Source: an uncultured bacterium (GTDB lineage Bacteria > Patescibacteriota > Doudnabacteria > UBA920). From it: a stretch of DNA of 64,000 nucleotides. The stretch is taken from contig CAVVMJ010000007.1 of NCBI GenBank assembly GCA_963749445.1, forward strand, positions 9,971-73,970. The letters are read 5' to 3'. Every line of letters begins with the position of its first letter. The first letter of the stretch is position 1. Shown here in pieces: positions 1 to 56,694 of the stretch. Under the pieces are notes generated by a model, which made no database searches, had not been told where the DNA came from, and was given only the letters and a program-made list of their open reading frames with translations. Position numbers and translations under genes: made by a program.

Positions 1-573
1 TAAACTTTCCAAAAAATCCCTGGCGTACCACTGCCGCAAATTCCAGAGATCAACGAAAGTCTGCACAGGCGGCGTCAGTTGGCCGAAAACTTTCAGGCGC
101 GGATCCGCGGCCAGGATCGCCAGATTGGGGAAGTCGGACGAGGCCAAAGGGAAGCGCTTGATAATCTCCGGCAAAAAATTTTCGTCCGCGTAAACGTAAA
201 CGTCCGCGTAATCGGCCGGAGTTAAACGGTACTGCCGGACAAACGCGCTGAACGCGCCATAAATTACTCCGGGCGGCATTAATCCCTCTATATCCAGGGG
301 CGAGTTTACCGAAACCTTTGTCTGGTATATTATATCATTCTCCAATTTGCGGTTGCTGGCCCAGAGCAGCAAAAACTTTTCCCTGTCCCGAACCCTAAAA
401 TTCCTGCCGGTTATTTCAATTGCCCCAGCTCTTTTTGGCAAGGCCATGGCGTTATTAACGGTGGATAGCGAAAAACCCAAACGGCCCGCCAGTTCCTTTT
501 GCGTAAAAACATACTGTTTCTTTTGGAAACAATCGTTTAATATTTCTCTCCAGATTTGTTCCTTTTTGAGCAT
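1..573 (-). CDS. TrmB-like HTH transcriptional regulator (3' end runs off window; no stop seen)
   Basis: Minus-strand ORF in frame from ATG at 571-573 to position 1 with no stop triplets. Translation MLKKEQIWREILNDCFQKKQYVFTQKELAGRLGFSLSTVNNAMA... has a winged-HTH-like N-terminus resembling the two other TrmB-family ORFs in the window. Confidence 0.5.
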   Translation of the reverse strand, partial: MLKKEQIWREILNDCFQKKQYVFTQKELAGRLGFSLSTVNNAMALPKRAGAIEITGRNFRVRDREKFLLLWASNRKLENDIIYQTKVSVNSPLDIEGLMPPGVIYGAFSAFVRQYRLTPADYADVYVYADENFLPEIIKRFPLASSDFPNLAILAADPRLKVFGQLTPPVQTFVDLWNLRQWYARDFLESL

Positions 574-816
574 ATCTGATATGTTTCGGTTTACTAACTA
601 TTTGATTAACCTCTTTTCTATTATATTAGAAACATAATAATTGGTCAAGTTACAAAATAATATGTGTAGTTTTTATGAGTGATATTATATTATTTGCCTT
701 ATATAAAAGGCTTTATTATTTAAATAGTTGATAAAAACCTTATTTTGTGCTATCATTGATGGTTAATTTCATAAAAGTACTTGTTTTGCTTGTGGTGGGC
801 AAAACCCTGTAAATTC

Positions 817-850
817 ATGCCCCCAAAGTCTTTTTGGGGGTTTTTGTTTC
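817..850 (+). terminator. intrinsic terminator-like hairpin (GCCCCCAAAGTCTTTTTGGGGG followed by T-run)
   Basis: Perfect 8-bp GC stem followed by TTTTTGTTT on the plus strand. Confidence 0.4.
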
Positions 851-1068
851 TCCCAAACAATTCGTCTGGCATTACCACCACTAATGCTTAATGAATTGCC
901 GGGTAGAAACACAAGGAGTTATTTCCGATAAATCCGACTTTCTGATTTATCTGACTGATTCCGAATTTACCGGGTTTTCCTCTCCATAAGTCGTCCCGAC
1001 TTAATACATTCAATTTATACGGGACATTATGAGAGGGCGATGGCAATATCGCAGCGGCAATTTTATAA

Positions 1069-1797
1069 TTGAGCCGCAGACGTGCACGGCGTTTCCCGTG
1101 CGGGCACCTTAACAATCGAGAAAACCAAATGTTAAAACTAACGTCTGACCCGGTTCGGACCATGGGTCCGAACAATCACTCGGTTGTGATTGGCGTTACG
1201 ATTATCGGCGACAGAAGAACGCCGGTGGTGAACGCAGACGTGCTCCTAAAGCTGGACTCACGAGATTGGGGCACACGAAAGACAAACCGTAATGGCCAAA
1301 TCGAACCGACGGAAGTGACTGCCATCCCCGATGGCAGTTTCAATGGCAACGGCAAACTGACGGTGGAGGCAATCCGCGTCGGCGCACCGGGGGATATGGA
1401 TCGCAAGATTATTGACATCCCAATGCCTCAACCCAAACCCGAACCCGCGGCAGTGGAAAGCATTGCCGTGACCAACGCGACTGAAGGCATTGTCTTGTGC
1501 TCCGGTTTCAACGGAACGCTCGAGATCGCCTTAGGGTTTGAGCAGGGAAAGAAGTCTCGCCCTGTCAGACTGAAAGTTTCGGCCGACCACAGGGTAGATT
1601 TTGCCAACGATAAAACGGGCACGCCTTTAGGCGCGAACGTAAAGTCGTGCGCGGCAACTACTTCGGCAGACGGAGTGCTCCGTCTGCGCGTCAACTTCCT
1701 GGCCTGCGGTCGGGACGAAGTCGAGATCAAAGTATCGGTCCCGAACTCGTCCAAAACTGCTACCGCCAAACTCAAATACAAAATGTTCGAAACTTAG
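1069..1797 (+). CDS. hypothetical protein, first gene of the GC-rich island (true start probably ATG 1129 or 1162)
   Basis: 242-aa ORF at about 60% GC against AT-rich flanks. No recognisable domain. The first codon of the ORF is TTG. Confidence 0.45.
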   Translation: MSRRRARRFPCGHLNNRENQMLKLTSDPVRTMGPNNHSVVIGVTIIGDRRTPVVNADVLLKLDSRDWGTRKTNRNGQIEPTEVTAIPDGSFNGNGKLTVEAIRVGAPGDMDRKIIDIPMPQPKPEPAAVESIAVTNATEGIVLCSGFNGTLEIALGFEQGKKSRPVRLKVSADHRVDFANDKTGTPLGANVKSCAATTSADGVLRLRVNFLACGRDEVEIKVSVPNSSKTATAKLKYKMFET

Positions 1798-1810
1798 GAG
1801 AGATAGACTG

Positions 1811-2788
1811 ATGACTCGTCACACACCCACATCCGCTGCACCGCCGCCGGCACCACCCGTGGCAACCGCACCGGCACCCCTCGCACCCGCAGTCATCCCG
1901 GCACAGGCACCCCTCGCACCCGCCACAATTCCGATCCCGGGAGGACACCACCTTAGCGACAAAACTTTGGTGACACTCGACATCCTCGTTGGAATCATCA
2001 CCGCTCTGTTCGGCCACGAAATCGGCCGCCAAGCGGGAAAGTGGTTCCAGGGAGCCAAACGCGGCTTGCAACAGATCGGTACGCCCGGGACAGCAACCGG
2101 GGTCACCATCTCAGGCAACGCACCCGCTCACATCGACCCCACCATCCATAGCGCCCTCCTAGGCATTGGACCGTGGGACGAAGCCGCCACTGGCATGACG
2201 CTGGGTGCTGCTTTCCGGCGGGCATTTCAACGCTTGTTGGAAGCAACCGGCACGCCAATGGAAGCGCCCATCCGCGCCGCGCTTGCCCAGCTGGAACAGA
2301 CTGTCGGCTTCATCGCCAACAAGCTCAACCAGCACCAGCGCGACTTCCTCCGCGAAGTCGTCGGCAAGCTCAAGACGGCTGAACTCCAGAACCTCTTCTG
2401 GCAGGACTTGGTCCTCGCCAGCAAGGACGAAACCGGTTTCATAAACTTTATGAAGGCAATGGGGATCGTCCACGAGCCGAACGAACTCACCCAGGAACTC
2501 GCGATTGCTATTGCCTATGGTTTCGAGCAGGCGAATGTGATCCGGGTCCAAATGGTGACCACGCTCACAGTTCGCTACGACGCCCGTTCCGACGCTGCCA
2601 GACAGCGCTGGTTCACCGCACATGGGCAACTCGCTCAAGGGCAGCCCGTTCAACAAAACGCGACGCCGTTCTGGCGCCGCCGCACGATATGGCTCGTCAT
2701 TGGACTGGCCATTCTGGCAGTGGCTCTATTTCTAGGCCTGCCCCACATCTACCTCAACCTTCGAAATTGGGAATGGAGTTGGAAATGA
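1811..2788 (+). CDS. hypothetical Pro/Ala-rich protein with C-terminal transmembrane anchor
   Basis: GGAG 8 nt upstream of the ATG. N-terminal PAPP/APLAP repeats and a C-terminal hydrophobic helix (IWLVIGLAILAVALFLGL). Confidence 0.55.
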   Translation: MTRHTPTSAAPPPAPPVATAPAPLAPAVIPAQAPLAPATIPIPGGHHLSDKTLVTLDILVGIITALFGHEIGRQAGKWFQGAKRGLQQIGTPGTATGVTISGNAPAHIDPTIHSALLGIGPWDEAATGMTLGAAFRRAFQRLLEATGTPMEAPIRAALAQLEQTVGFIANKLNQHQRDFLREVVGKLKTAELQNLFWQDLVLASKDETGFINFMKAMGIVHEPNELTQELAIAIAYGFEQANVIRVQMVTTLTVRYDARSDAARQRWFTAHGQLAQGQPVQQNATPFWRRRTIWLVIGLAILAVALFLGLPHIYLNLRNWEWSWK

Positions 2789-4197
2789 CGAATCTAGGAA
2801 GAATCGGAAGGTCGATCGGCACAATGGTGTCCGGTCTGGAAGCGAGGATTTTGGGCTGGATTAGCGCTCATGTCTCGCTAACGCCGCGCGCCTTCGGCAC
2901 GTGGCTTGACGAACACAATTTCATCCGGCTGGAAAACGGCGCGCCTGTCACGGACTACGCCGGTTTCTTCCGCTGGACACGCAACTCGCTCCTGTCCCTG
3001 ATGGCACTGACTTTATTGCTCGAAGCCTACACCATAGTCATCGGGACATTCAACAACACCCCGCTCGGCCTCGGCATAAGCTTAGGTTTCGGTGTGGCAG
3101 TGTTCGGCATCGCGTCGGTGGTCTGGATTTGGAGGACCATCGGCCGCGTCAACGAAGGCTTGGCCTGGATTTTCACTCTGGCCACTGCCACCCTTGCCCT
3201 AATTGGCTTAGGGACTCCGACTTACCAGTACTACGCCGCGGGGAACCTCGCCAAACTTTCGGCAAAAGATATCCAAAATCTGATCGCGGCAGGCATTCCG
3301 CGAATCTGGGCTATGGCGGGCTTTTGCCTGCTCAGCCTGATCGTTCTTCCGCTTACCTGGATGACCACTCTGGGGCCCGCCCTGCTGTCCCTGGCTTTCG
3401 CCAAGACGGCAGAAGGTCTGGAAACGGCGTGGACAGAAATCCGGAAAATATTCTCGCACGATAGGGAAGTAGCGGAAGCCGCTGCGGAAAACCTCCGCAA
3501 GCGGACAGAAACACAGACCGGCCTGCTCATGCTCACATGGGCGATCCTGGCGCTGTTTACTCTCTCTATTATTCTCTCGTCCACGGTCTGGGGGCCTTTC
3601 GGCGGCTTGGTCATCGGTATGACCGCAATCGTGCCGGTATGGATACGACGGTGGAATATGTTCTTGGGAACTTTCTTAACCAAGGCACTCTACGGCGTAG
3701 CCACAGGAGGGCTGATCTTTATCTGCTTCCTGTACGGCCTTTCACTCTCGGCCTTGATGCTGATTCCCGACCAAATTTCGCTCAACGCACTGCTAGTAAT
3801 CAAGTGGGCCAGCTTCCTAATCGGTCTCGCTTCGGCAGTTGGAGTGTTGTTTACCTCCACCACGGCCAGCAAACAGAACGAACTGGAAGCCGGCATGGGG
3901 GAAATTCAGCCCTACACCAGAAAGGTCACGGGTTTCGGGACTGATGGGCAGCCGATTTTTGAAGCTGTTCACCCCAAACCGACGTCCTTCGCCTGGGTCA
4001 AGCCCACGGTCTTCGGTGCTGTTGTCATCGCTCTGGTTGCCTATGTGCACTACAACGGCAACCCGCTTTCCGGCACCAGCCCGCTCAAGCTGGTCGCTTA
4101 CACAATGGTTGTCGGCTTGATCCTTATTCTCTTTGGGATCTTTTCCGGCGGCAAGACGCAAGCCACCCCTACACAGGAGGTGCGCCATGACCACTAG
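2785..4197 (+). CDS. hypothetical polytopic membrane protein (at least 10 predicted TM helices)
   Basis: ATGA start/stop overlap with the upstream gene and GGAG upstream. Long hydrophobic segments throughout. The longer track ORF from 2689 would overlap the previous gene by 100 nt. Confidence 0.5.
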   Translation: MTNLGRIGRSIGTMVSGLEARILGWISAHVSLTPRAFGTWLDEHNFIRLENGAPVTDYAGFFRWTRNSLLSLMALTLLLEAYTIVIGTFNNTPLGLGISLGFGVAVFGIASVVWIWRTIGRVNEGLAWIFTLATATLALIGLGTPTYQYYAAGNLAKLSAKDIQNLIAAGIPRIWAMAGFCLLSLIVLPLTWMTTLGPALLSLAFAKTAEGLETAWTEIRKIFSHDREVAEAAAENLRKRTETQTGLLMLTWAILALFTLSIILSSTVWGPFGGLVIGMTAIVPVWIRRWNMFLGTFLTKALYGVATGGLIFICFLYGLSLSALMLIPDQISLNALLVIKWASFLIGLASAVGVLFTSTTASKQNELEAGMGEIQPYTRKVTGFGTDGQPIFEAVHPKPTSFAWVKPTVFGAVVIALVAYVHYNGNPLSGTSPLKLVAYTMVVGLILILFGIFSGGKTQATPTQEVRHDH

Positions 4198-4771
4198 GAA
4201 AAAGTGCATCGTCATCGGCACTTTAATCGTCGGCGCAGCAGCCGCTGTGCTCCTCGGCTATTACGTAGGCATTGGCAAGTACGCGCCCAGCGAACAGGCG
4301 GCCTACAACCGCCTTCACGCGGCGAACAACTGGGAGTTTGAGGGGAAAACAAGCGATGTTGAAGACAAGCAAGTTCCCCTCGCCGACAAGGTTGCTCAAG
4401 TCAACGTCCTAGCCGTGCAAAAACGCACTCTGGACGCGCAAATCGGCCACCCGGAGCTGACCAACTGCCGGACGCAACCCGGCAAGGACAAGGACGGCAA
4501 GCCAATACTGGTGTCCGAGCCGTGCCCCGGCGGCGTCTCCGCGGCAATCTACAGGGGCAAAGAGGCCGTCATAACGGTCCAGCTCCTAACTTACAGCAAC
4601 GACGAACTCCCGCTCAATGTCGCACCGACCCTCGTCGGCGACGAGCAACTCGGTGGGACAGCAGTACCCCTGGGCAACAACCGGTTCCGCGTGTCGGGAC
4701 TGGTGTATGACCAGGAAAAAATCGCCGGCGGATACAAGATTCGCGTTACGCCGGAAGGAGGAGGAAACTAA
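4185..4771 (+). CDS. hypothetical membrane-anchored protein (N-terminal TM, extracytoplasmic domain)
   Basis: GGAGG upstream. The ATG overlaps the upstream stop by 11 nt. MTTRKKCIVIGTLIVGAAAAVLLGYYV signal-anchor. Confidence 0.5.
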
Positions 4772-5000
4772 TGAGAGACAGGATCCCGTGGCCTCGATCG
4801 ACAATTGACAGTAATGATTGCCCGACGAGGTGTAGGGAACCGACTTGGACAGGAGAGAAAAACAAATAATTAAGCAATTATTTCTCTCCCGTCCGTTTTA
4901 AAAGCCGTCATAGATTAACCTTATCATTCTCCCCCAAATCATGAGGAGATACCCCGCCGAAGGCGGAACAGAGAGGTTAAACTATGGCGGCTTTTAAATT

Positions 5001-5027
5001 GGCCACATTCCATTTTGGAATGTGGCC
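5001..5027. terminator. perfect 12-bp hairpin GGCCACATTCCA-TTTT-GGAATGTGGCC between convergent genes
   Basis: Palindrome seen directly. It lies between the end of the + island operon and the end of the - strand pilin-like gene. Confidence 0.45.
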
Positions 5028-5060
5028 ATCCCGAACGAAGTGAGGAATCTATTTAACTTT

Positions 5061-5765
5061 TTAATTAGTTGTCTGGGTTGTAGTGCCCCGCTGTAAAATG
5101 TCGGAGGTCGTTAAGGTGGAGGTAATAATCGTAACAATGGAGTAAGCCAAAATTACCACTACCAAACCGACAATCGCGTTAATCAAAGCTTTTTTGCCTT
5201 TTTCCGACTGCTCCTCATTGCCCGCGGACGTAATGTACCAAAACCCGCCGACAATTAACGCGACCACCGCTATCAATCCGGAAAGAATCAATAAATACTT
5301 TATAACGACAAAAATCAAATCCACCAAGGTTCCCGCGCCTGCCGGGCTGCCGGCAGTATAAGTATTTGCCGGTACGCAAAAGCCGTTGATTTGCACCAGT
5401 CGGCTGTCGCCGCAAGGGCCACTCACCGTGGAAGGGATGGTTGGATTTAAGTTCACTCCTCCGCTATTTTGATACGCAGTACAAACCGGATCGTTCGGGT
5501 AGCTGTTGCAACAAGCTAACCCGGTTAAGCCCGAAGAGGCGCAGTCAACTTGCTTTGGCCCGACAATTCCGCCGGCAACGCAGGCACTTCCTGAATAAGT
5601 GCATCCCACTGTATTTGCGCACTGGATCGGATCAGCAATACCGGTACAATTATCGGCTTTAGCCAACAAAGGCCCACATGCCAAAAAACTAAAGGCCAAA
5701 GCAAAAACTGCAAAAAACACAAGTCCTGTCAGTTTATCAAATTGCAATTTGCTATTTTTTTTCAT
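5061..5765 (-). CDS. secreted Cys-rich surface protein with C-terminal VirB2/TrbC-like two-helix pilin module (paralog 1)
   Basis: Signal peptide and 16 Cys in the ectodomain. C-terminal motif IVGGFWYITSAGNEEQSEKGKKALINAIVGLVVVILAYSIV is shared with five neighbouring ORFs. Confidence 0.6.
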   Translation of the reverse strand: MKKNSKLQFDKLTGLVFFAVFALAFSFLACGPLLAKADNCTGIADPIQCANTVGCTYSGSACVAGGIVGPKQVDCASSGLTGLACCNSYPNDPVCTAYQNSGGVNLNPTIPSTVSGPCGDSRLVQINGFCVPANTYTAGSPAGAGTLVDLIFVVIKYLLILSGLIAVVALIVGGFWYITSAGNEEQSEKGKKALINAIVGLVVVILAYSIVTIITSTLTTSDILQRGTTTQTTN

Positions 5766-5774
5766 CGCGAAAAT

Positions 5775-6173
5775 TTAAACCCCGAGCCCGCCGGTAATGG
5801 TATTTTCAATGACCGTAATAATTGTATAAGCCAAAATAATAATCACAATGCCGATAATGGCATTGATTAAAGTTTTTTTGCCTTTTTCCGACTGCTCCTC
5901 GTTGCCGGACGCGGTAATGTAATAGTACCCGCCGATAATAATGAACAGCACGGCAATGGCGCCGGCAAACAGCAGCATCAGCTTAATGACATCATAAATC
6001 AAATGCGGCAAATCCGGCTCCTGGGACAGCCCGCCGATGCCGAACAAATCCCTTAAACCGCCTATGCCGGTCAGCCCCTGGCCGACCGCGCTGGTCTGGG
6101 CAAAAACCATAGCCGGCAAAAATAGCAAAGCGGAAGATATCCAGGCAAATATTTTTTTGACTGTTTGTTTCAT
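5775..6173 (-). CDS. VirB2/TrbC-like pilin-family protein (paralog 2, minimal form)
   Basis: Signal peptide followed by IIGGYYYITASGNEEQSEKGKKTLINAIIGIVIIILAYTII. Confidence 0.6.
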   Translation of the reverse strand: MKQTVKKIFAWISSALLFLPAMVFAQTSAVGQGLTGIGGLRDLFGIGGLSQEPDLPHLIYDVIKLMLLFAGAIAVLFIIIGGYYYITASGNEEQSEKGKKTLINAIIGIVIIILAYTIITVIENTITGGLGV

Positions 6174-6214
6174 AAGATTGTGCTTCTAATTATTAAAAGT
6201 TAATTAAACACCAA

Positions 6215-6392
6215 TCAGAATGTCGGAATGTCGAATTAATCGGAGGGGTCATTTCCAAAATTTTTCCAATTTGTTATTAACCGATTAATTTGTTCAGAAA
6301 CTAAGACCAATCTTTATTGCCTGTATACGTCCAACTACCCGACCTCCGATATTCTGATTTATCCGATTATTCCGACTTCTGATTCCAAACTC
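6215..6392. repeat. MITE-like intergenic repeat module with about 17-bp terminal inverted repeats (AATCAGAATGTCGGAAT / ATTCCGACTTCTGATT)
   Basis: The internal 150 bp is homologous to 7947-8030 plus 8345-8470. Related fragments (GATTTATCCGA, ATTCCGAC) also occur at 930-990. Confidence 0.45.
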
Positions 6393-6548
6393 AGGGGCAG
6401 AACCAGTTCCGCCCGAGAGCCCGGAGCCGAAATTTTCGGCCGACCGTTTAGTGTCATTGCGAGGAGGCCGGGGCTTTGTCCGGCCGACGCGGCAATCCCT
6501 TCTTTTGATAAGATTGCTTCGGCTGCTACTGCAATGACACTAAATTTT

Positions 6549-6941
6549 TTAGCTGGATGACTTGGAAACCAAACCGGCCACCACGTTAACGATTACGTAG
6601 GACAAAAGAATAATGACAATACCGATAATGGCGTTAATGGCCGTGTTCTTGCCTTTTTCCGCGGTTTCCTCATTGCCGGCGGAGGTAATGTACCAGAAGC
6701 CGCCAATGATTAAGAACAACACGGCAATACCAAAGGCGATCCCTAGGAGCCAATTGATGATATTTTTAATCAACGCGTTAGCATCGGTAGTGCCGCAGTT
6801 TAATCCGGTTCCGGAGCAGTTAGGAGCGGTCAGCTGCGCCTGTCCAAAATGCAATGGGACAAACACAAAAATCGCCACCAACACCAGCTCAGCGACCACT
6901 AACCAATTGATTTTCTTGATTATTTGTTTCAAGCTGTTCAC
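6549..6941 (-). CDS. VirB2/TrbC-like pilin-family protein (paralog 3)
   Basis: Signal peptide, CSGTGLNCG ectodomain, then IIGGFWYITSAGNEETAEKGKNTAINAIIGIVIILLSYVIV. Confidence 0.6.
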   Translation of the reverse strand: MNSLKQIIKKINWLVVAELVLVAIFVFVPLHFGQAQLTAPNCSGTGLNCGTTDANALIKNIINWLLGIAFGIAVLFLIIGGFWYITSAGNEETAEKGKNTAINAIIGIVIILLSYVIVNVVAGLVSKSSS

Positions 6942-7061
6942 CCCCTCTCGTTTCCCTTTCCCTCTCCCTCGGGGAGAGGGCAGGGTGAGGGTTAATTTGC
7001 TGACATTATTATACTACGATTCCTAATTTTTGGCCATCTCTATCTTTTTGGCACACGGTTG

Positions 7062-7946
7062 TCATCTCGGGCTCGGCCCAGGCGTAGGATAGGTTAAATT
7101 CTTATTGGTGGCTTGGCCGCAAACAAAAGTTTGCACCTCCTGCCCGGGCTGTATGGGTTTCTGGGAAGCCATGGCCACGGCCCAGCCGCTTGCGTTTTGC
7201 GTATAGTTTGATTGCATATAATCCGCGCCGTCAACTTTTACGGTAAAAGAGATAGGACTTACATCGCCACATATCATCGCAATCTGTGCCAATAAATCTC
7301 TTTCGCCAGTAGAAATTGTGGAATTCACTAACAGGCCGGGATTTTTGGGCGTAATGACAATATTGTCCCCCAAATAATTTTTATTGGTGCTCCTAGCATT
7401 ACTGACATCCTGTAAACTGATGCCCGCGAACATCGGGTTGGAATAAGCATTGCCTCCTTGCGTACCCGCGACCGCCGGATTGGTGTTGGTATTAGCCGAC
7501 GGATTAGTTACTGCCGGGGTATTGCCATTGCCGGTACTGCCCCCGGTCAACCCGCTGGTTAGCAAATTAACCGTGATGCGGACTATGGCATAAGCCATAA
7601 TAATTACGACCAAACCGATAATCGCGCTGGTAATGGCCTTGCGGCCTTTTTCGGATTGCTCCTCGTTGCCCGCGGCCGTCAGGTACCAAAAACCGCCCAA
7701 AATTATGAACACTACGGCCACCAAGGCGGCAAATTCCAGCAATAACTGGATAACATTGCCCACGGCCTGCTGGGGCGTACATAGTTTGGGGAGGCCTTCA
7801 ATGGTATTTACCGGTTTGCCGTTAACGGTAATTTGAAACTGGCCAAAAAACTTGTTGCAATCAAATTGCGCCGACGCCGGCATGGCCAACAGCCAGCTGA
7901 AAAGGATTATCACCAGAAAAAATTGAAGCTTATGCGTTTTCTTCAT
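7062..7946 (-). CDS. VirB2/TrbC-like pilin-family protein with 170-aa C-terminal extension (paralog 4)
   Basis: Signal peptide. The conserved module ILGGFWYLTAAGNEEQSEKGRKAITSAIIGLVVIIMAYAIV is in the N-terminal half, followed by a Gly/Asn/Thr-rich linker and a C-terminal domain. Confidence 0.55.
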   Translation of the reverse strand: MKKTHKLQFFLVIILFSWLLAMPASAQFDCNKFFGQFQITVNGKPVNTIEGLPKLCTPQQAVGNVIQLLLEFAALVAVVFIILGGFWYLTAAGNEEQSEKGRKAITSAIIGLVVIIMAYAIVRITVNLLTSGLTGGSTGNGNTPAVTNPSANTNTNPAVAGTQGGNAYSNPMFAGISLQDVSNARSTNKNYLGDNIVITPKNPGLLVNSTISTGERDLLAQIAMICGDVSPISFTVKVDGADYMQSNYTQNASGWAVAMASQKPIQPGQEVQTFVCGQATNKNLTYPTPGPSPR

Positions 7947-7965
7947 AATTTTTCGGAAAATCGGA

Positions 7966-8307
7966 TTAATCGGAATTATCGGATCTGAAATTCTTCCAAT
8001 TGGTTATTAGTCGATTAATTTGCTTGGATACTATTTTATAGTGCTTGATTAGTGCTTCGCAGGTTTCGGGTTTAATATTCGGGAAACCAATGAGTTTAAT
8101 TTGTCTTAGATGGGTTATAACTTCATCCGAAGATCCCAACGCAATCCGCAAGTAACGCTTGAATTCTTTTTCCGAATTTCGTTTGGCAAAACCTTCGGTA
8201 ATTTGCGCCGGAACTCCTTTTGCCGCGCCCGTTAACTGGTCTTTTGTCCGAAACTCATTTTTTGGCAACAAATCTGCTAACCGGTAAATCGGCCTAATCA
8301 ACTTCAT
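7966..8307 (-). CDS. four-helix-bundle protein (23S rRNA IVS protein family)
   Basis: The sequence ...GAAKGVPAQITEGFAKRNSEKEFKRYLRIALGSSDEVITHLRQ... matches the four-helix-bundle family. The gene sits inside copy 2 of the repeat module. Confidence 0.55.
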   Translation of the reverse strand: MKLIRPIYRLADLLPKNEFRTKDQLTGAAKGVPAQITEGFAKRNSEKEFKRYLRIALGSSDEVITHLRQIKLIGFPNIKPETCEALIKHYKIVSKQINRLITNWKNFRSDNSD

Positions 8308-8394
8308 TGACCTTCTGATAAACCTCTAAATCCTCAACATCCTTTATCATAATTAAAAAATTAAGACCGGTTTTTATTGCCTATATCCATCCAA

Positions 8395-9978
8395 CTATCC
8401 GACCTCCGATTTATCCGACATTCCGACATTCCGACATTCCGACATTCCGACATTCCGATTTATCCGAATCATACTCGTACTCTGGCTGACGTTTTGGATT
8501 TGCGTCTGCAAAATATATTGGACAATGGCAATGATGCTAAAGGACAGCAAAGCAATGGCTAAACCCAAAATGGCCCAGGTGATGGTCTTGCGCGCGGCCG
8601 TGACCGCCTCTTCGTTGCCCTGGGACATGACGTAGCGGAAGCCACCGATGACTATAAAAGCCACGGACCACAAAGCAATGACGCCCAAAAAGGCGCGCAT
8701 TATCAACAGCAAAGTCGCAGTCAAAGAATCCACGGGCAGGGGGTTATATAAACAATTGTTGGCATCGGGACCGGTACAATTAGCGGTGGAAGGAGTGCCG
8801 GCGGCAGAACATGTCCCTCCCGTGGCGGCTGAACATATCTGCCCGGAACTGCAAGTCCCCTGCTGCCCGGGACCTCCGGTACAAGAAGCACCAGGCGCGA
8901 CAGCCGCGGTCGGACTTACAGTAATATTAAAAGTAGTCGGTCCAACCCCATTTAACGCTGTGGTTCCGTCAGCGGCCACCGGAGTCGCGACAATTGAATT
9001 AACGCCGCTAATATTAAAACCGGAGTTTGCGTCCAAGGTAAAATTTTGGCTCCATTGTTTTGAACTGTCAAGTTTTACATCTTGATTACCCGCGTGCACC
9101 AATAAAATGCCGCCACTGGGCATATTGGTGGCAGAAATTGTTATGGTAGTTCCGGGCGCATAAGTACTATTGGCCGCAGGCGGCGATAAAACAACCGTCG
9201 GCGCGTTACCACTTGCGCCTGTGGCCTGAGTTAAAGTATAAGTTTGATCATAAATTCCCTTGCCGCTACTATCAGTCAGGACAAATCTTAACTTGTTATC
9301 CCCATTGCTAATAAATCCATTTGTGGCATTTACCGCTATTTGGTTGCCGCCTGAGTATATTGCAACAAAGTGATTATTATCGTTGACATAAATGTTTCCC
9401 TGCGCACCGGGCGGAAAATCTGTATAAGTAATTTTTAAGGTATCGCCAATTTTAGCGGTAGGCGGTGAAACTGTAAAGTTAAACCCCTCTCCTAAAGGAT
9501 TATTAGAAACATTTAGCTGTTTTCCCCAATTTTTTGTATCTCCCAAGTCACCCAAACTTGAATGAACATCCAAATAGTAAGGAAAAATGTAATCTGACCC
9601 TGACTTGGTAACATCACTCCAACGGGAAAAATTTGATAAATTAAAAGGGCAGTCAATATTAACATTGTTAGGAACAGGCGGGCTGACCTGGCACCTGGCC
9701 AAATACCAAGGGCTACCACTGATAGGGGCAATAAAATCAAACTCCATGATATTATTGGCACTACAGCCGTTTGTATTAACTATGGTATTAAATTTTGCCG
9801 AATCGCCTTTATAAATTCTGGTTGGAACTGCCTCCATAGAGGTAATTTGCACCTGGCAAATTCCTGCGGCTATTGCAGATTTTATGAATCCACGCCCAAA
9901 AACCCCGGCCAGCATCAATAAAATTATGACGCTGCTTTTTAGTGCGCTTAATATTTTATTGTACTTGTTCTGCGTCAT
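8395..9978 (-). CDS. large secreted surface protein with C-terminal VirB2/TrbC-like pilin module (paralog 5). The 3' end reads through the octamer repeat
   Basis: Signal peptide, about 400-aa beta-rich ectodomain, Cys/Gly-rich linker, then FIVIGGFRYVMSQGNEEAVTAARKTITWAILGLAIALLSFSII. The last 30 or so aa are encoded by the repeat module. Confidence 0.55.
   Translation of the reverse strand: MTQNKYNKILSALKSSVIILLMLAGVFGRGFIKSAIAAGICQVQITSMEAVPTRIYKGDSAKFNTIVNTNGCSANNIMEFDFIAPISGSPWYLARCQVSPPVPNNVNIDCPFNLSNFSRWSDVTKSGSDYIFPYYLDVHSSLGDLGDTKNWGKQLNVSNNPLGEGFNFTVSPPTAKIGDTLKITYTDFPPGAQGNIYVNDNNHFVAIYSGGNQIAVNATNGFISNGDNKLRFVLTDSSGKGIYDQTYTLTQATGASGNAPTVVLSPPAANSTYAPGTTITISATNMPSGGILLVHAGNQDVKLDSSKQWSQNFTLDANSGFNISGVNSIVATPVAADGTTALNGVGPTTFNITVSPTAAVAPGASCTGGPGQQGTCSSGQICSAATGGTCSAAGTPSTANCTGPDANNCLYNPLPVDSLTATLLLIMRAFLGVIALWSVAFIVIGGFRYVMSQGNEEAVTAARKTITWAILGLAIALLSFSIIAIVQYILQTQIQNVSQSTSMIRINRNVGMSECRNVGMSDKSEVG
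8415..8454. repeat. octanucleotide microsatellite (CCGACATT)x5
   Basis: Five perfect tandem units. Translated on the minus strand they form the C-terminal tail (RNVGMSECRNVGMS) of ORF 8395..9978. Confidence 0.9.
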
Positions 9979-9990
9979 ACTTTTTGATTT

Positions 9991-10485
9991 TTACTTCCCT
10001 GCCGGCGCGATGCCTTCTTCCACGTTATAGGAATTTGGGACGCAGGTATAACTGCTCGGGTTGGTCAAAGTAATGTAAGTCCACGGACTGGCAAAATCAA
10101 TTTTGCATTTGGACATTAATAGAATATTAACTGCGGTATTGACGAACATATACGCGGCCACGACCACAAAAAATCCTATGAATACCTGGGTTAACGCTCC
10201 CTTGTGTTTGGTAATGTCCTCCTCGTTGCCGCTGCTCGCCACCAGCCAAAAAGAATGTTCAACAATCTTGTAAACCGCGTAAAGCCCGGCCATGGCTATC
10301 AGCCAGTTGGTCACCCGCGCCACCCCGTAAAAAGCGTCCAAAACTCCGCAGGGATGATTATCCGTCGGCCCGCTGCCGCCGCAGGGAACTAGTCCAGCGG
10401 CATGGACGAAAAATGGCATAGAAAAAGCTATTGTTATTGTTAAGATTACCGCAACTAAAAGCCTTTTTTGTTTCAAGATAATCAT
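9991..10485 (-). CDS. VirB2/TrbC-like pilin-family protein (paralog 6, divergent)
   Basis: Signal peptide, CGGSGPTDNHPCG, then LVASSGNEEDITKHKGALTQVFIGFFVVVAAYMFV. Confidence 0.5.
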   Translation of the reverse strand: MIILKQKRLLVAVILTITIAFSMPFFVHAAGLVPCGGSGPTDNHPCGVLDAFYGVARVTNWLIAMAGLYAVYKIVEHSFWLVASSGNEEDITKHKGALTQVFIGFFVVVAAYMFVNTAVNILLMSKCKIDFASPWTYITLTNPSSYTCVPNSYNVEEGIAPAGK

Positions 10486-15638: not shown

Positions 15639-15656
15639 TTATCAAAACTCTCGGGC

Positions 15657-15860
15657 AGGGCTTACGCATTGGCCAAGTGCGAGGCATTTTGCGAGGATGT
15701 TTGGAGGCGTACTAAAGGTACGACGACAAACACCGCAGCAAAATAACGAAGCAATTGGCCAAAGCCACTTTTTTGGAACCCGGACTTCCTCTGCCAAAAA
15801 ACGGCGGTGCGTAAGTCCTGCCAAAATTGAAAAAGCGCCCCGGTTAGGGGCCGTTTATAA
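15657..15860 (+). ncRNA. candidate structured small RNA with intrinsic terminator (family unknown)
   Basis: 15-bp closing helix GGCAGGGCUUACGCA/UGCGUAAGUCCUGCC, perfect only as plus-strand RNA (one G-U). Nested 8-bp UUGGCCAA helix and GUAC-UAAAG-GUAC hairpin. Then GCCCC-GGUUA-GGGGC stem plus U-rich tract at 15835-15860. Lies in an 850-bp gene-free gap. Confidence 0.3.
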
Positions 15861-16486
15861 AATAAAATGCCCACGCGAGGCGCTTGTAACCCGAAATTAA
15901 TCGGATACGCTTCGCGCAAACGAGTTGCGCAAAGAATACCACACTGTTAATTCCAGGCCTTCCCAACTTTACAGTCGGGAGAAAGCGTCTGAAGTCCAAT
16001 CGCATTTCAAACTGCACTCTAAACTTCTCTTGTGGTAGTTTAACAACTACCTAAAAACTTTGATTGCCTATTTTGGGCAATTAATGCTAATCCATTGGGG
16101 AATAAATTAGCCTACATTTTTGTTTTTGTTTTTCAAACAGCTTAGATTGGAATAAGCTATGACGAGAAGTTTAAAGGAAAATACCCTCAAATATCAAAAT
16201 TAAGAGCAACTTCCTTTAGTTCAGTTTACCTCGACCTTGCGTCGGGGTTTGAAATCAATTTTTAAAGTGCTTTTGTTTCCGAATCTGCTTGAATAACTGT
16301 GTATTTATCATAGCAATGTTTGCCTAAAATGTCAATTACTGACGTCTTTTGTAACTAAACTCCTTTTAAATAAAAGCGATTTAAATTTTGCTGATATAAG
16401 TTGGCTTGCTTTACCGAATTTTTGATTATTTTATCTTTTGGGGATAACCCATATAAACCTTTTAATTATGCCGGGAATAGGAAAAT

Positions 16487-55122: not shown

Positions 55123-56694
55123 TTAAACCCCGCGCAATAATTCTATTTTGGCGCCAATCTTGCGCAGGCGCGAGACGAGGTCTTCGTAGCCGCGGTTGAT
55201 GGAGTAGGCGTTGCGGAGGATGGAGGTGCCTTTGGCCGCCAGCATGGCGACCAGAATGTTGGCGGCCGGGCGCAGGGCGGGAGGACAAATGACTTCTGCG
55301 CCGCGGAGCTCGGTCGGCCCTTCAATGTATACCCGATGGGCATCGGCCAAAATTATATTGGCGCGCAGCTTGGTTAATTCCATATAGTAAATTGCGCGGT
55401 TTTCGTAAACCCAGTCGTGGATTAAAGTTGTGCCCTTGGCCTGCGTGGCAATGGGCACAAAAAACGGCAAATTGTCTATATTTATGCCCAATCCGCCGGG
55501 CAACGGGTGCAATTTTTCCTCCAGCGCCTTGAGTTTGGAAGGAAAAGCTTGCACATCGGCCAAATTGGTTATGCCGTTATAACTTTTGTACTGTTTGATA
55601 ATTTTATAGCGGAAACCCATTTTTTCCAGCTTTAAAAGTTCAAGCTCCAAAAAATCAATCGGGCAACGCTCAATCGTCAGCGAAGAATTCGTCGTGGCCG
55701 CGATGGCCAAAAACAGCATTGACTCAATCGGGTCTTCGCTTAAATAATAACTGACGGTTTGGTTGATATGCGGTTTGCCGTGGACAACAAGAGTGGAAGA
55801 ACCGACCCCGTCTATTTTTACGCCCAGGGCAATAAGGAAATGGCACAAATCCCGCACCATATAATTGGCGCTGGCCATTTTGATGATGGTAATGCCGGGC
55901 AAGCGCGCGGCAGCCATTAAGGCATTTTCCGTAACCGTATCACCGGTTTCATAAAGTACGATTTCGGAGGTTTTCCCGCCGGAGGCGGATCCGCCTTTGG
56001 CGGAAAGTCCAACCGATGTGACCTGGTAATTATCATGGGTGGTTTTAACTTTAACGCCCAGTTTTTCCAAAGCGAACAAATGCGGCCGCACCGTGCGCGC
56101 GCCAAGGCGGCAGCCGCCGGGGTGGGGAAGGGCAAAATTTTGCAGCAGATGAACCAGCGGCCCAAGCAGCATCAGCACGCTGCGCGTTTTGGCCGCGGAC
56201 TCCACGTCCATAGCCTTTAAATTCAGCCTTTTTGGCGGAATAATTTGCAAATCCCGGTCTTTCCATTTCACATCCACGCCAATGCTTAAAAGAACTTCCA
56301 CCATCCGATAGACCTCTTCAATCTTGGGAACTCTTTTGAGTATGGTCTTGCCCGAATTGAGCAGGCTCGCGCACAGCAGAGCCACGGCCGCGTTTTTAGA
56401 GGTGTTGGTGGTTACTTTGCCGGAAAGTTTAAACCCACCTTCAATTTTAAAATTAACGCTTTGGCCGCCCAAAGTAATAATTTCCCGCCCCAGCACGGCG
56501 CTGATTTTAGCCAGGGTTTCCGTTGTTAAATTCTGCAAACCGTTTTCCATGCGGGCCACGGCCGATTGGGAAGTTTTCAGCAGCACGGCAAACTCCGCCT
56601 GGGTCAAGCCCTTTTGTTCGCGCGTCTGGCTAATAAACCGGCCGATTCTGGCCTGTTCTTGGGCGATATTTTTAGTTAAAGCCACATTTGGCAT
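55123..56694 (-). CDS. murA: UDP-N-acetylglucosamine 1-carboxyvinyltransferase with N-terminal XRE-type HTH domain fusion
   Basis: The N-terminal 70 aa (GLTQAEFAVLLKTSQSAVARMENGLQNLTTETLAKISAVLG) are HTH_XRE. The rest is an EPT-family enzyme. There is an internal GGSASGG insertion at 55970-56000. Confidence 0.75.
   Translation of the reverse strand: MPNVALTKNIAQEQARIGRFISQTREQKGLTQAEFAVLLKTSQSAVARMENGLQNLTTETLAKISAVLGREIITLGGQSVNFKIEGGFKLSGKVTTNTSKNAAVALLCASLLNSGKTILKRVPKIEEVYRMVEVLLSIGVDVKWKDRDLQIIPPKRLNLKAMDVESAAKTRSVLMLLGPLVHLLQNFALPHPGGCRLGARTVRPHLFALEKLGVKVKTTHDNYQVTSVGLSAKGGSASGGKTSEIVLYETGDTVTENALMAAARLPGITIIKMASANYMVRDLCHFLIALGVKIDGVGSSTLVVHGKPHINQTVSYYLSEDPIESMLFLAIAATTNSSLTIERCPIDFLELELLKLEKMGFRYKIIKQYKSYNGITNLADVQAFPSKLKALEEKLHPLPGGLGINIDNLPFFVPIATQAKGTTLIHDWVYENRAIYYMELTKLRANIILADAHRVYIEGPTELRGAEVICPPALRPAANILVAMLAAKGTSILRNAYSINRGYEDLVSRLRKIGAKIELLRGV

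Follow-up and report, generated by a model that had tools for sequence, protein, structure and literature searches.

What is a block of DNA with its own base composition, codon choice and translation signals doing beside the pilin genes of a patescibacterium? The question is raised by an island of four genes, named here C1 to C4 (open reading frames ORF1 to ORF4), near the left end of a 64,000-nucleotide stretch from an uncultured bacterium placed in the Doudnabacteria (GenBank assembly GCA_963749445.1, contig CAVVMJ010000007.1, forward-strand positions 9,971 to 73,970). This stretch is called the window, and coordinates refer to it unless another locus is named. A galU search of species-representative genomes recovered 80 loci at 59–81% identity, nearly all from Patescibacteria and the best labelled Candidatus Doudnabacteria; the host is a Doudnabacteria-like patescibacterium. 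On balance, the island is probably an accessory, exchangeable cassette for an envelope complex, lodged at a fixed hot spot between the end of a VirB2-like pilin array and the tRNA-Leu(UAG)/ftsH gene pair. It has the layout of a self-contained operon, with a predicted sigma-70-like promoter and structured leader of its own, four tightly packed genes, and putative hairpin terminators shared with the convergent pilin genes.

Sliding-window analysis revealed one block of raised GC, at the window's left end. Positions 1129–4771 are 57.6% GC and positions 5001–64000 are 46.3% (z = 3.9 for the island), while the next-highest 3.6-kb stretch in the window reaches 51.9%. A cumulative GC walk placed the change points at 1141 and 4796. 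An earlier reading of the letters alone (the sequence-only reading) had put the island in the right place but overstated its contrast, as 60% versus 40% where we measure 58% versus 46%. Codon usage is foreign as well: the synonymous-codon distance (relative synonymous codon usage) between the four pooled island genes and the host pool is 0.194, against 0.03–0.08 for host blocks of equal size. GC is up at all three codon positions, with third-position GC (GC3) of 0.62–0.71, so the excess goes beyond what amino-acid content alone would produce.

Translation signals also set the island apart. GGAG or GGAGG motifs, canonical Shine-Dalgarno (SD) sites, lie 6–10 nt upstream of C2, C3 and C4; C1 lacks one, so that the SD sites attributed to the island hold for three of its four genes. 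C2 and C3 share an exact ATGA overlap (2785–2788), and C3 and C4 overlap by 11 nt, which leaves one true case of the ATGA-type overlaps that had been described. Host genes use no SD above background, as had been claimed: a GGAG-like motif precedes 4 of the 55 host genes of the window and is found at a control position in 7 of 55. The 80 related loci follow the same pattern, with SD sites in 9% of 1,067 genes of host-like GC (7% at the control position) and in 42% of 64 GC-rich genes (6% at the control position).

The cassette family is rare. C3 has two relatives, at 43–44% identity, among 5.8 billion clustered proteins, and a profile search of 1.84 billion protein representatives gave 21 family members in all; word-indexed protein searches with C1 and C2 returned the self match only. 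Every contig bearing a relative has the gene order C1, C2, C3, and after these either a gene resembling C4 or an extension of C3 at its C-terminus. These homologous cassettes belong to other patescibacterial lineages, adjoin a pilin array, and share the gene order, the SD sites and a GC excess of 7 to 13 points, while their proteins range from ~40% down to ~18% identity with those of the window. At the distant end, P0017, a C3 relative 18% identical to the window protein, was found in four contigs from different samples, which read ftsH, tRNA-Leu(UAG), C1-C2-C3, two membrane-protein genes, three Pfam-annotated pilin genes, a solute-binding-protein (SBP) gene, galU and comM; its cassette is 55–60% GC in a genome of 44%. 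In locus L010 the corresponding values are 60% and 51%. Across all homologous loci, an AGGAG/GGAGG-type site stands at SD distance from almost every cassette gene. High GC and SD use are thus constant traits of the family across deep divergence.

Position is equally constant. A PF18895 pilin array adjoins the cassette in every contig with visible flanks (the window, L004–L007, L010, L012, L018 and L064), and L054, where the cassette matches are weaker, also has such an array beside them. Wherever flanks are visible the operon is convergent to the array, and in relatives it lies between the array and tRNA-Leu(UAG)/ftsH. In L008, an ftsH fragment (1–717) next to tRNA-Leu and a cassette is ~60% GC, so that a high-GC patescibacterial lineage has the cassette at this site without a contrast in composition; that ftsH, a single gene, has no SD site.

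We surveyed occupancy of the site in the 43 array-bearing loci among the 80 galU-anchored ones, whose conserved backbone consists of galU, SBP, pilin array, tRNA-Leu(UAG), ftsH and tRNA-Val. Since none of the 80 loci has a homologue of the island's left neighbour in the window, a gene for a Crp-like helix-turn-helix (HTH) regulator, tRNA-Leu served as the anchor for calling empty sites. The site is empty in 22 of the 43, with the array ending 65–239 nt from tRNA-Leu(UAG). Five loci have a gap of 0.4–1.0 kb between array and tRNA, four hold 2.1–4.8 kb of extra DNA bounded by the tRNA, and 12 run past the locus end, eight of these being GC-rich. The clean empty sites agree with the earlier view of the island as accessory DNA of non-host composition and translation signals. 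Members of the C1–C4 family occur in four loci: L018 has all four genes, L012 a different C3 subfamily, L064 C4 followed by the locus end, and L054 weak matches.

The hot spot also takes other cargo. At least nine further loci carry different GC-rich, largely SD-led clusters there, and at least 13 of the 21 non-empty sites hold cargo of this sort. In L014, L028, L029, L033, L042, L043, L073 and L085 the occupants are convergent to the array, raised in GC by 3–20 points and largely SD-led; of 15 GC-rich segments (at least 8 points over the locus median), eight begin at the array end. With homologous and non-homologous GC-rich, SD-led cargo at the same spot, the signature marks a class of cargo that belongs to the hot spot rather than one recent event. 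Some of these occupants appear loosely similar in make-up to the cassette, with predicted bitopic Cys-containing, polytopic and Pro-rich beta proteins. Cold-shock-domain proteins are encoded in L073 (18232–20879) and L042 (17302–19479), by Pfam match, and in L085 (19219–20340), as read from its sequence; the L073 protein weakly matches the S1/CSD domain of TOTE conflict systems, and L073 also encodes a Ser/Thr kinase, hinting at a possible conflict or defence function for its cargo. L021, from a genome of 35–37% GC, has a single-gene occupant (15646–16062, minus strand), GC-rich and preceded by an AAGGAGG SD, for a secreted, Arg-rich protein of 138 aa; it has its own TTGACA-17-TATAAT promoter and a terminator.

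Comparison of alleles points to exchange. The window galU is 77–79% identical to that of L018 or L012, and the cassette proteins are 40–45% identical to those of L018, with C4 not alignable by BLAST. The L018 cassette is nearer that of an unplaced contig, L003 (59–61%), than that of the window, and L012 has a short C3 subfamily. P0008 and P0003 (L003 1757–3160) carry near-identical C-terminal ~65 residues on a short-type and a long-type C3 that are otherwise <20% identical, an apparent recombinant allele. Divergent and mosaic cassettes, together with the empty sites, seem more in keeping with exchange and replacement than with descent and loss. We suggest that cassettes are swapped between lineages at the hot spot, probably by recombination through the conserved flanks. 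Such swapping would account for the mosaic alleles, for the presence of cassettes in some loci and their absence from others, and for a GC, codon and SD signature that persistently differs from the host's.

Expression signals precede the genes. A consensus scan (10 of 12 matches) predicted a sigma-70-like promoter at 728–756 on the plus strand, TTGATA-17-TATCAT with an extended −10 TG, and TTGACA/TATAAT-like promoters also lie 5′ of the hot-spot cargo in L004, L008, L010, L014, L033, L043 and L021. The AT-rich border on the left has promoters facing both ways, a second, near-consensus sigma-70-like site at 648–620 being directed at the Crp-like regulator gene. Downstream of the cassette promoter is a 362-nt 5′ leader (767–1128, plus strand) of host-like GC, the rise in GC beginning only at ~1141. 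Its predicted fold of −132.8 kcal/mol compares with −88.0 ± 5.6 kcal/mol for shuffled sequences (z = −8.1). A repeat-module fragment had been proposed to flank the island on this side; neither 600–1130 nor the other border sequences have a second copy in the window, and the stretch consists of promoter and structured leader.

The leader begins with a long-range helix of ~25 bp between a 5′ arm at 789–816 and a 3′ arm at 963–990 (plus strand), with a duplex energy of −29.9 kcal/mol against −9.8 when the arms are shuffled. This helix recurs 3′ of the promoter in L014, L033, L008 and L010, with duplexes of −24 to −39 kcal/mol against ~−10 when shuffled. It shows many two-sided changes, such as C-G to G-C at three consecutive pairs; this covariation was counted directly from the pairing, the MAFFT leader alignment having misaligned the 3′ arms. 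Enclosed by the helix is a terminator-like hairpin with a U-run (819–851, plus strand; terminator scan), in which a hairpin with a 10-bp stem (819–841) is followed by TTTTGTTTCT, a candidate attenuator with an equivalent in the L014 leader. Bases 784–815 form the only stretch on the left side with nucleotide identity to L014 (94%, 32 nt), and nucleotide similarity to relatives resumes from 5094, inside the last pilin gene. The leader also repeats part of its 3′ arm imperfectly, at 893–910 (compared with 963–980: GAATTGCCGGGTAG versus GAATTTACCGGGTTTT). This inner copy is a possible alternative partner for the 5′ arm, and it is where MAFFT placed the 3′ arms of L014 and L033.

We regard the leader as a candidate new cis-regulatory RNA. 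Like attenuators and riboswitch-type 5′ untranslated regions, it is long, structured and promoter-proximal, with an intrinsic-terminator-like hairpin and a covarying helix, the 5′ arm of which could also pair with the 3′ half of the terminator. Unlike them, it matches no Rfam family at the gathering score (at E ≤ 1 there were just chance-level hits to mir-14 and NsiR1) and has no identified conserved core resembling a ligand pocket; just five examples are known. Its organisation suggests action by attenuation or RNA processing, through which the leader would gate read-through into the genes. Alternatively, the 25-bp duplex could be an RNase III site or a 5′ stabiliser.

On the right, the cassette ends in three hairpins (4847–4894, 4897–4998 and 5000–5028). 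The perfect hairpin terminator of the sequence-only reading is the last of these, with a stem of 13 bp, but it is one of three. In the middle element (102 nt), inverted arms of 25 nt (92% complementary) enclose 52 nt that contain two small hairpins, and A/T runs flank the arms. Hairpins of different sequence are similarly placed 5′ of the terminator in L012, L014, L018 and L064, and relatives have a bidirectional terminator (A-run, GC hairpin, U-run) at the same 3′-border position. At the end of C4, a candidate fifth ORF on the plus strand (4771–4869) would encode a basic protein of 32 aa, MRDRIPWPRSTIDSNDCPTRCREPTWTGEKNK; it is SD-led, preceded by GGAGGAGG, and overlaps the C4 stop in TAATG. 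SD-led mini-ORFs also lie 3′ of the last cassette gene in L010, L012, L014, L028 and L033, with sequences that are not conserved.

C1 (1129–1797 or from 1162, plus strand) is 222 aa long from the first ATG or 211 aa according to gene callers, shorter than the 240 aa first given. It is probably beta-rich, as previously read and as judged from its sequence pattern alone; a transmembrane (TM) scan of the ORF found neither a signal peptide nor a TM segment, so a description of C1 as secreted is unsupported. Homologues in L003, L018, L004 and L010 share a C-terminal ..L(K/R)YK motif, and C1 aligns with relatives of two or three domains that end in the same motif. C2 (1811–2788, plus strand; GGAG 10 nt upstream) is a helical protein of 325 aa with a conserved hydrophobic helix (53–71) and a conserved G..DEA motif; its N-terminal Ala/Pro-rich tandem repeat and C-terminal TM segment (292–310) are confined to the window copy. 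C3 (2785–4197, plus strand) starts within the ATGA that overlaps the C2 stop and is a 470-aa polytopic core membrane protein. The earlier estimate of ten or more TM helices agrees with a polytopic protein, for which we count 9–11, and a loop hairpin, Y.R.V.G...DG.P..E.V, is conserved. An AlphaFold2 model of C3 (predicted local distance difference test, pLDDT, 71.9) matched only generic helical bundles in the PDB. C4 (4187–4771, plus strand; GGAGG SD, overlapping C3 by 11 nt) is bitopic and 194 aa long, with an N-terminal TM anchor at 7–25 that bears out the membrane-anchored protein of ~200 aa described before, and two invariant cysteines in its ectodomain.

None of the four falls into a recognised family, as had been suspected. 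C1–C4 had no match in Pfam, PHROGs (all E > 0.05), NCBIfam or PADLOC (0 families at E ≤ 0.1 for all four proteins), comparison of C1 and C3 with PDB sequence profiles gave nothing meaningful, and Pfam searches with all members of the C2 and C3 alignments yielded no consistent match. The profile searches detected no nuclease, ATPase or other enzymatic domain. C1–C4 are four new protein families. A phage origin was considered for the cassette and dropped, the PHROG result being joined by a tblastn search of 50,697 phage records and an IMG/VR scan with narrow C3 patterns, both without a match. Taken together, the predicted products look like parts of a membrane complex, with C3 as polytopic core, C4 as a bitopic protein that carries the invariant Cys pair, and C2 as a helical, membrane-associated protein with a hydrophobic helix, much as the sequence-only reading had supposed.

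The constant neighbour of the cassette offers a comparison. Quinonero-Coronel et al. (2025) described 441 VirB2-like pilin arrays of 2–11 highly divergent genes and suggested a role for them in adapting to different hosts (PMC12102498). The cassette adjoins an array of this patescibacterial system, which resembles a type IV secretion system (T4SS); the passages of that paper reached by a term search and its outline mention no neighbouring cassette, hot spot or GC/SD anomaly. The paper also reports few or no VirB6 proteins for some classes, "suggesting extreme sequence divergence". C3 is polytopic like VirB6, C4 is bitopic with an ectodomain like VirB8, and both adjoin VirB2-like pilin genes; they could be analogues of these two T4SS components, but no test supports membership. 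C1–C4 match none of the VirB3, VirB4, VirB6 and VirB8 profiles used in the paper, nor any Pfam model, and neither the window C3 nor any of 16 family members matched TrbL/VirB6 at E ≤ 1. C4 shares the bitopic topology of VirB8, the ectodomain of VirB8-like proteins having an NTF2-like fold; the single-sequence model of C4 has a pLDDT of 37.

We propose that C3, C2 and C4, the last with an ectodomain that is probably disulfide-bonded, would assemble into an envelope complex, with C1 as a cytoplasmic partner. The complex would expose a fast-evolving surface domain and may work with, or alongside, the pilins in contact between the episymbiont and other cells.

How well do other accounts explain the same observations? 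The cassette might be an ancient resident module of the pilin/T4SS-like locus that predates the split of these lineages and has been lost repeatedly, its GC and SD sites maintained by selection (structured, GC-rich mRNA might require an SD, for instance) or by GC-biased gene conversion at a locus prone to recombination. Conservation of position and gene order in lineages where C3 is only ~18% identical would suit such a module, as would the covarying leader helix and the presence of a GC excess in every case, which amelioration after old transfers would have erased. However, close relatives (galU 77–81% identical) hold different C3 subfamilies, unrelated cargo or nothing; alleles are mosaic, codon usage is far from the host's, and cargo GC3 reaches 0.7–0.88 beside pilin genes at 0.3–0.45. 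Long residence with loss thus seems unlikely, though it deserves some weight. The sequence-only reading had inferred a recent acquisition from a high-GC, SD-using donor, and in its full form this would be a single transfer into the window genome from outside the Patescibacteria. Foreign GC, codon usage and SD sites, and the lack of a homologue in most relatives, are what it would predict, but all homologues with visible flanks stand in patescibacterial contexts, and the promoter and leader are common to relatives. No outside donor emerged from 185,579 species genomes, IMG/VR or JGI metagenomes, scanned with narrow C3 patterns that also missed L018 in the genome collection, or from the phage and plasmid collections. 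Given cassettes of the same signature in diverged patescibacterial lineages, "recent" and "high-GC donor" have at best partial support, and such an origin is improbable. Within the group, high-GC lineages such as that of L008 could be native hosts of the cassette or its donors.

Defence systems are often found in variable hot spots close to tRNA genes, and C1–C4 could be a membrane-acting abortive-infection or exclusion system unrelated to pilins, in the company of the cold-shock-domain proteins (one weakly TOTE S1/CSD-like) and the Ser/Thr kinase found among the other occupants. Against this stand the lack of a PADLOC match and of any nuclease, ATPase or other enzymatic domain in C1–C4, and we consider a defence island quite unlikely. 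The abrupt change in composition at both ends might also betray a mis-assembly, in which high-GC DNA of a different organism was joined to a patescibacterial contig. Run ERR10755942, however, gave a separate Logan assembly that matches window positions 781–6481 at 100% and spans both borders, and contigs of at least eight further samples and studies repeat the cassette–pilin junction and the GC step; an artefact is extremely improbable. A bolder idea, to which we give very little credence, treats the hot spot as an export site: its genes, with consensus sigma-70 promoters, strong SD sites and GC-rich codons, would be meant for expression in the bacterial host cell instead of the SD-less patescibacterium. 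The neighbouring VirB2-like/T4SS apparatus would deliver them there as DNA, much as Agrobacterium transfers its T-DNA, but into bacteria. Such a role would account for a signature that is foreign to the carrier and yet has been kept, without amelioration, in lineages that diverged deeply. Cargo might otherwise stay GC-rich and SD-led through influx from a pool of genes of SD users that is as yet unseen, through GC-biased conversion at a site prone to recombination, or because structured, GC-rich mRNAs need SD sites.

The exchangeable envelope cassette, which we favour, has several observations to contend with. About half of Parcubacteria reportedly lack an anti-SD motif in their 16S rRNA (PMC9297842); if the same holds for this host, the SD sites may be non-functional in the carrier cell. 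The window has no tRNA-Leu/ftsH on the left, where the Crp-like HTH gene stands instead. No integrase, transposase, relaxase or att-like flanking direct repeat was found (ORF list; 500–5300), and with similarity only from 5094 and in the 32-nt leader piece, recombination through the flanks is something we infer. A single family uniting C1–C4 with the other GC-rich hot-spot clusters was tried and abandoned, all hhalign probabilities being below 6%; "the same kind of cargo" therefore refers to position, composition, SD sites and loosely similar architecture. The functional link to pilins is drawn from constant adjacency and shared hypervariability, with C3 matching no VirB6/TrbL model and the C4 fold prediction, as given above, of low pLDDT.

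Known classes of variable locus resemble the cassette in part. As in tRNA-associated islands, GC and codon usage are atypical, presence and absence alternate with clean empty sites, and relatives have a tRNA gene at the boundary. The cassette differs from them in lacking an integrase and direct repeats, in measuring only 2–6 kb, and in having a conserved promoter and leader; moreover, such islands insert at the 3′ end of a tRNA gene, whereas here, in relatives, cargo lies on the 5′ side of tRNA-Leu. Nor is there an integrase or mobility gene of a classical integrative island in or beside it, the only ORFs being C1–C4 and the neighbouring Crp-like HTH and pilin genes. Integron cassettes were also considered and rejected: the genes overlap or lie 13 nt apart, with no intergenic hairpin sites and no integrase seen. 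O-antigen and capsule loci are fixed in position, hypervariable and atypical in composition, and are typically AT-rich with sugar-pathway enzymes. The cassette is like them in its constant position, diverse content in close relatives, persistently atypical composition and presumed surface function, but unlike them it is GC-rich and SD-led and encodes non-enzymatic membrane proteins.

The surroundings in the window are as follows. The VirB2-like pilin array (5061–10485, minus strand), convergent with the cassette, has six PF18895 genes. Five exceed the gathering score of 26.6 bits (5061–5765, 6549–6941, 7062–7946, 8395–9978 and 9991–10485) and one was assigned by a precomputed match (5775–6173). 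The array is interrupted at 7966–8307 (minus strand), where a 23S rRNA intervening-sequence protein is encoded (PF05635, E = 4e-17). Beyond it lie a fragment of a solute-binding-protein gene, galU and comM. The Crp-like HTH gene to the left occupies 1–573 (minus strand). Synteny breaks exactly at the island's left edge, where the tRNA-Leu(UAG)/ftsH pair would be expected, and the window has no tRNA within 30 kb. Farther away, 55123–56694 (minus strand) encodes a 523-aa protein in which an N-terminal HTH_3 domain is joined to an EPSP-synthase/MurA-type domain, an unusual fusion.

Variable islands of atypical composition at chromosomal hot spots are a known category; the protein families and the leader RNA are what is new. 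A large part of bacterial diversity is patescibacterial, and although these cells live attached to other bacteria, few of the genes for contact with, and specificity for, their partners are known. In the only lineage tested, the VirB2-like pilin arrays are essential (cited in PMC12102498). The present locus ties a fixed, swappable cassette site to these arrays and adds a new structured leader RNA as well as four new protein families. An unexplained rule emerges too, namely that hot-spot cargo is GC-rich and SD-led in genomes that otherwise make no use of SD sites, and one may ask whether a separate gene pool is marked by translation-signal "dialects". Presence/absence alleles, promoter and leader, and an exposed ectodomain give handles on cell-surface variation. 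Should the cassette prove to be merely one of many unrelated passengers, the hot spot would still be a useful marker of gene flow for this group.

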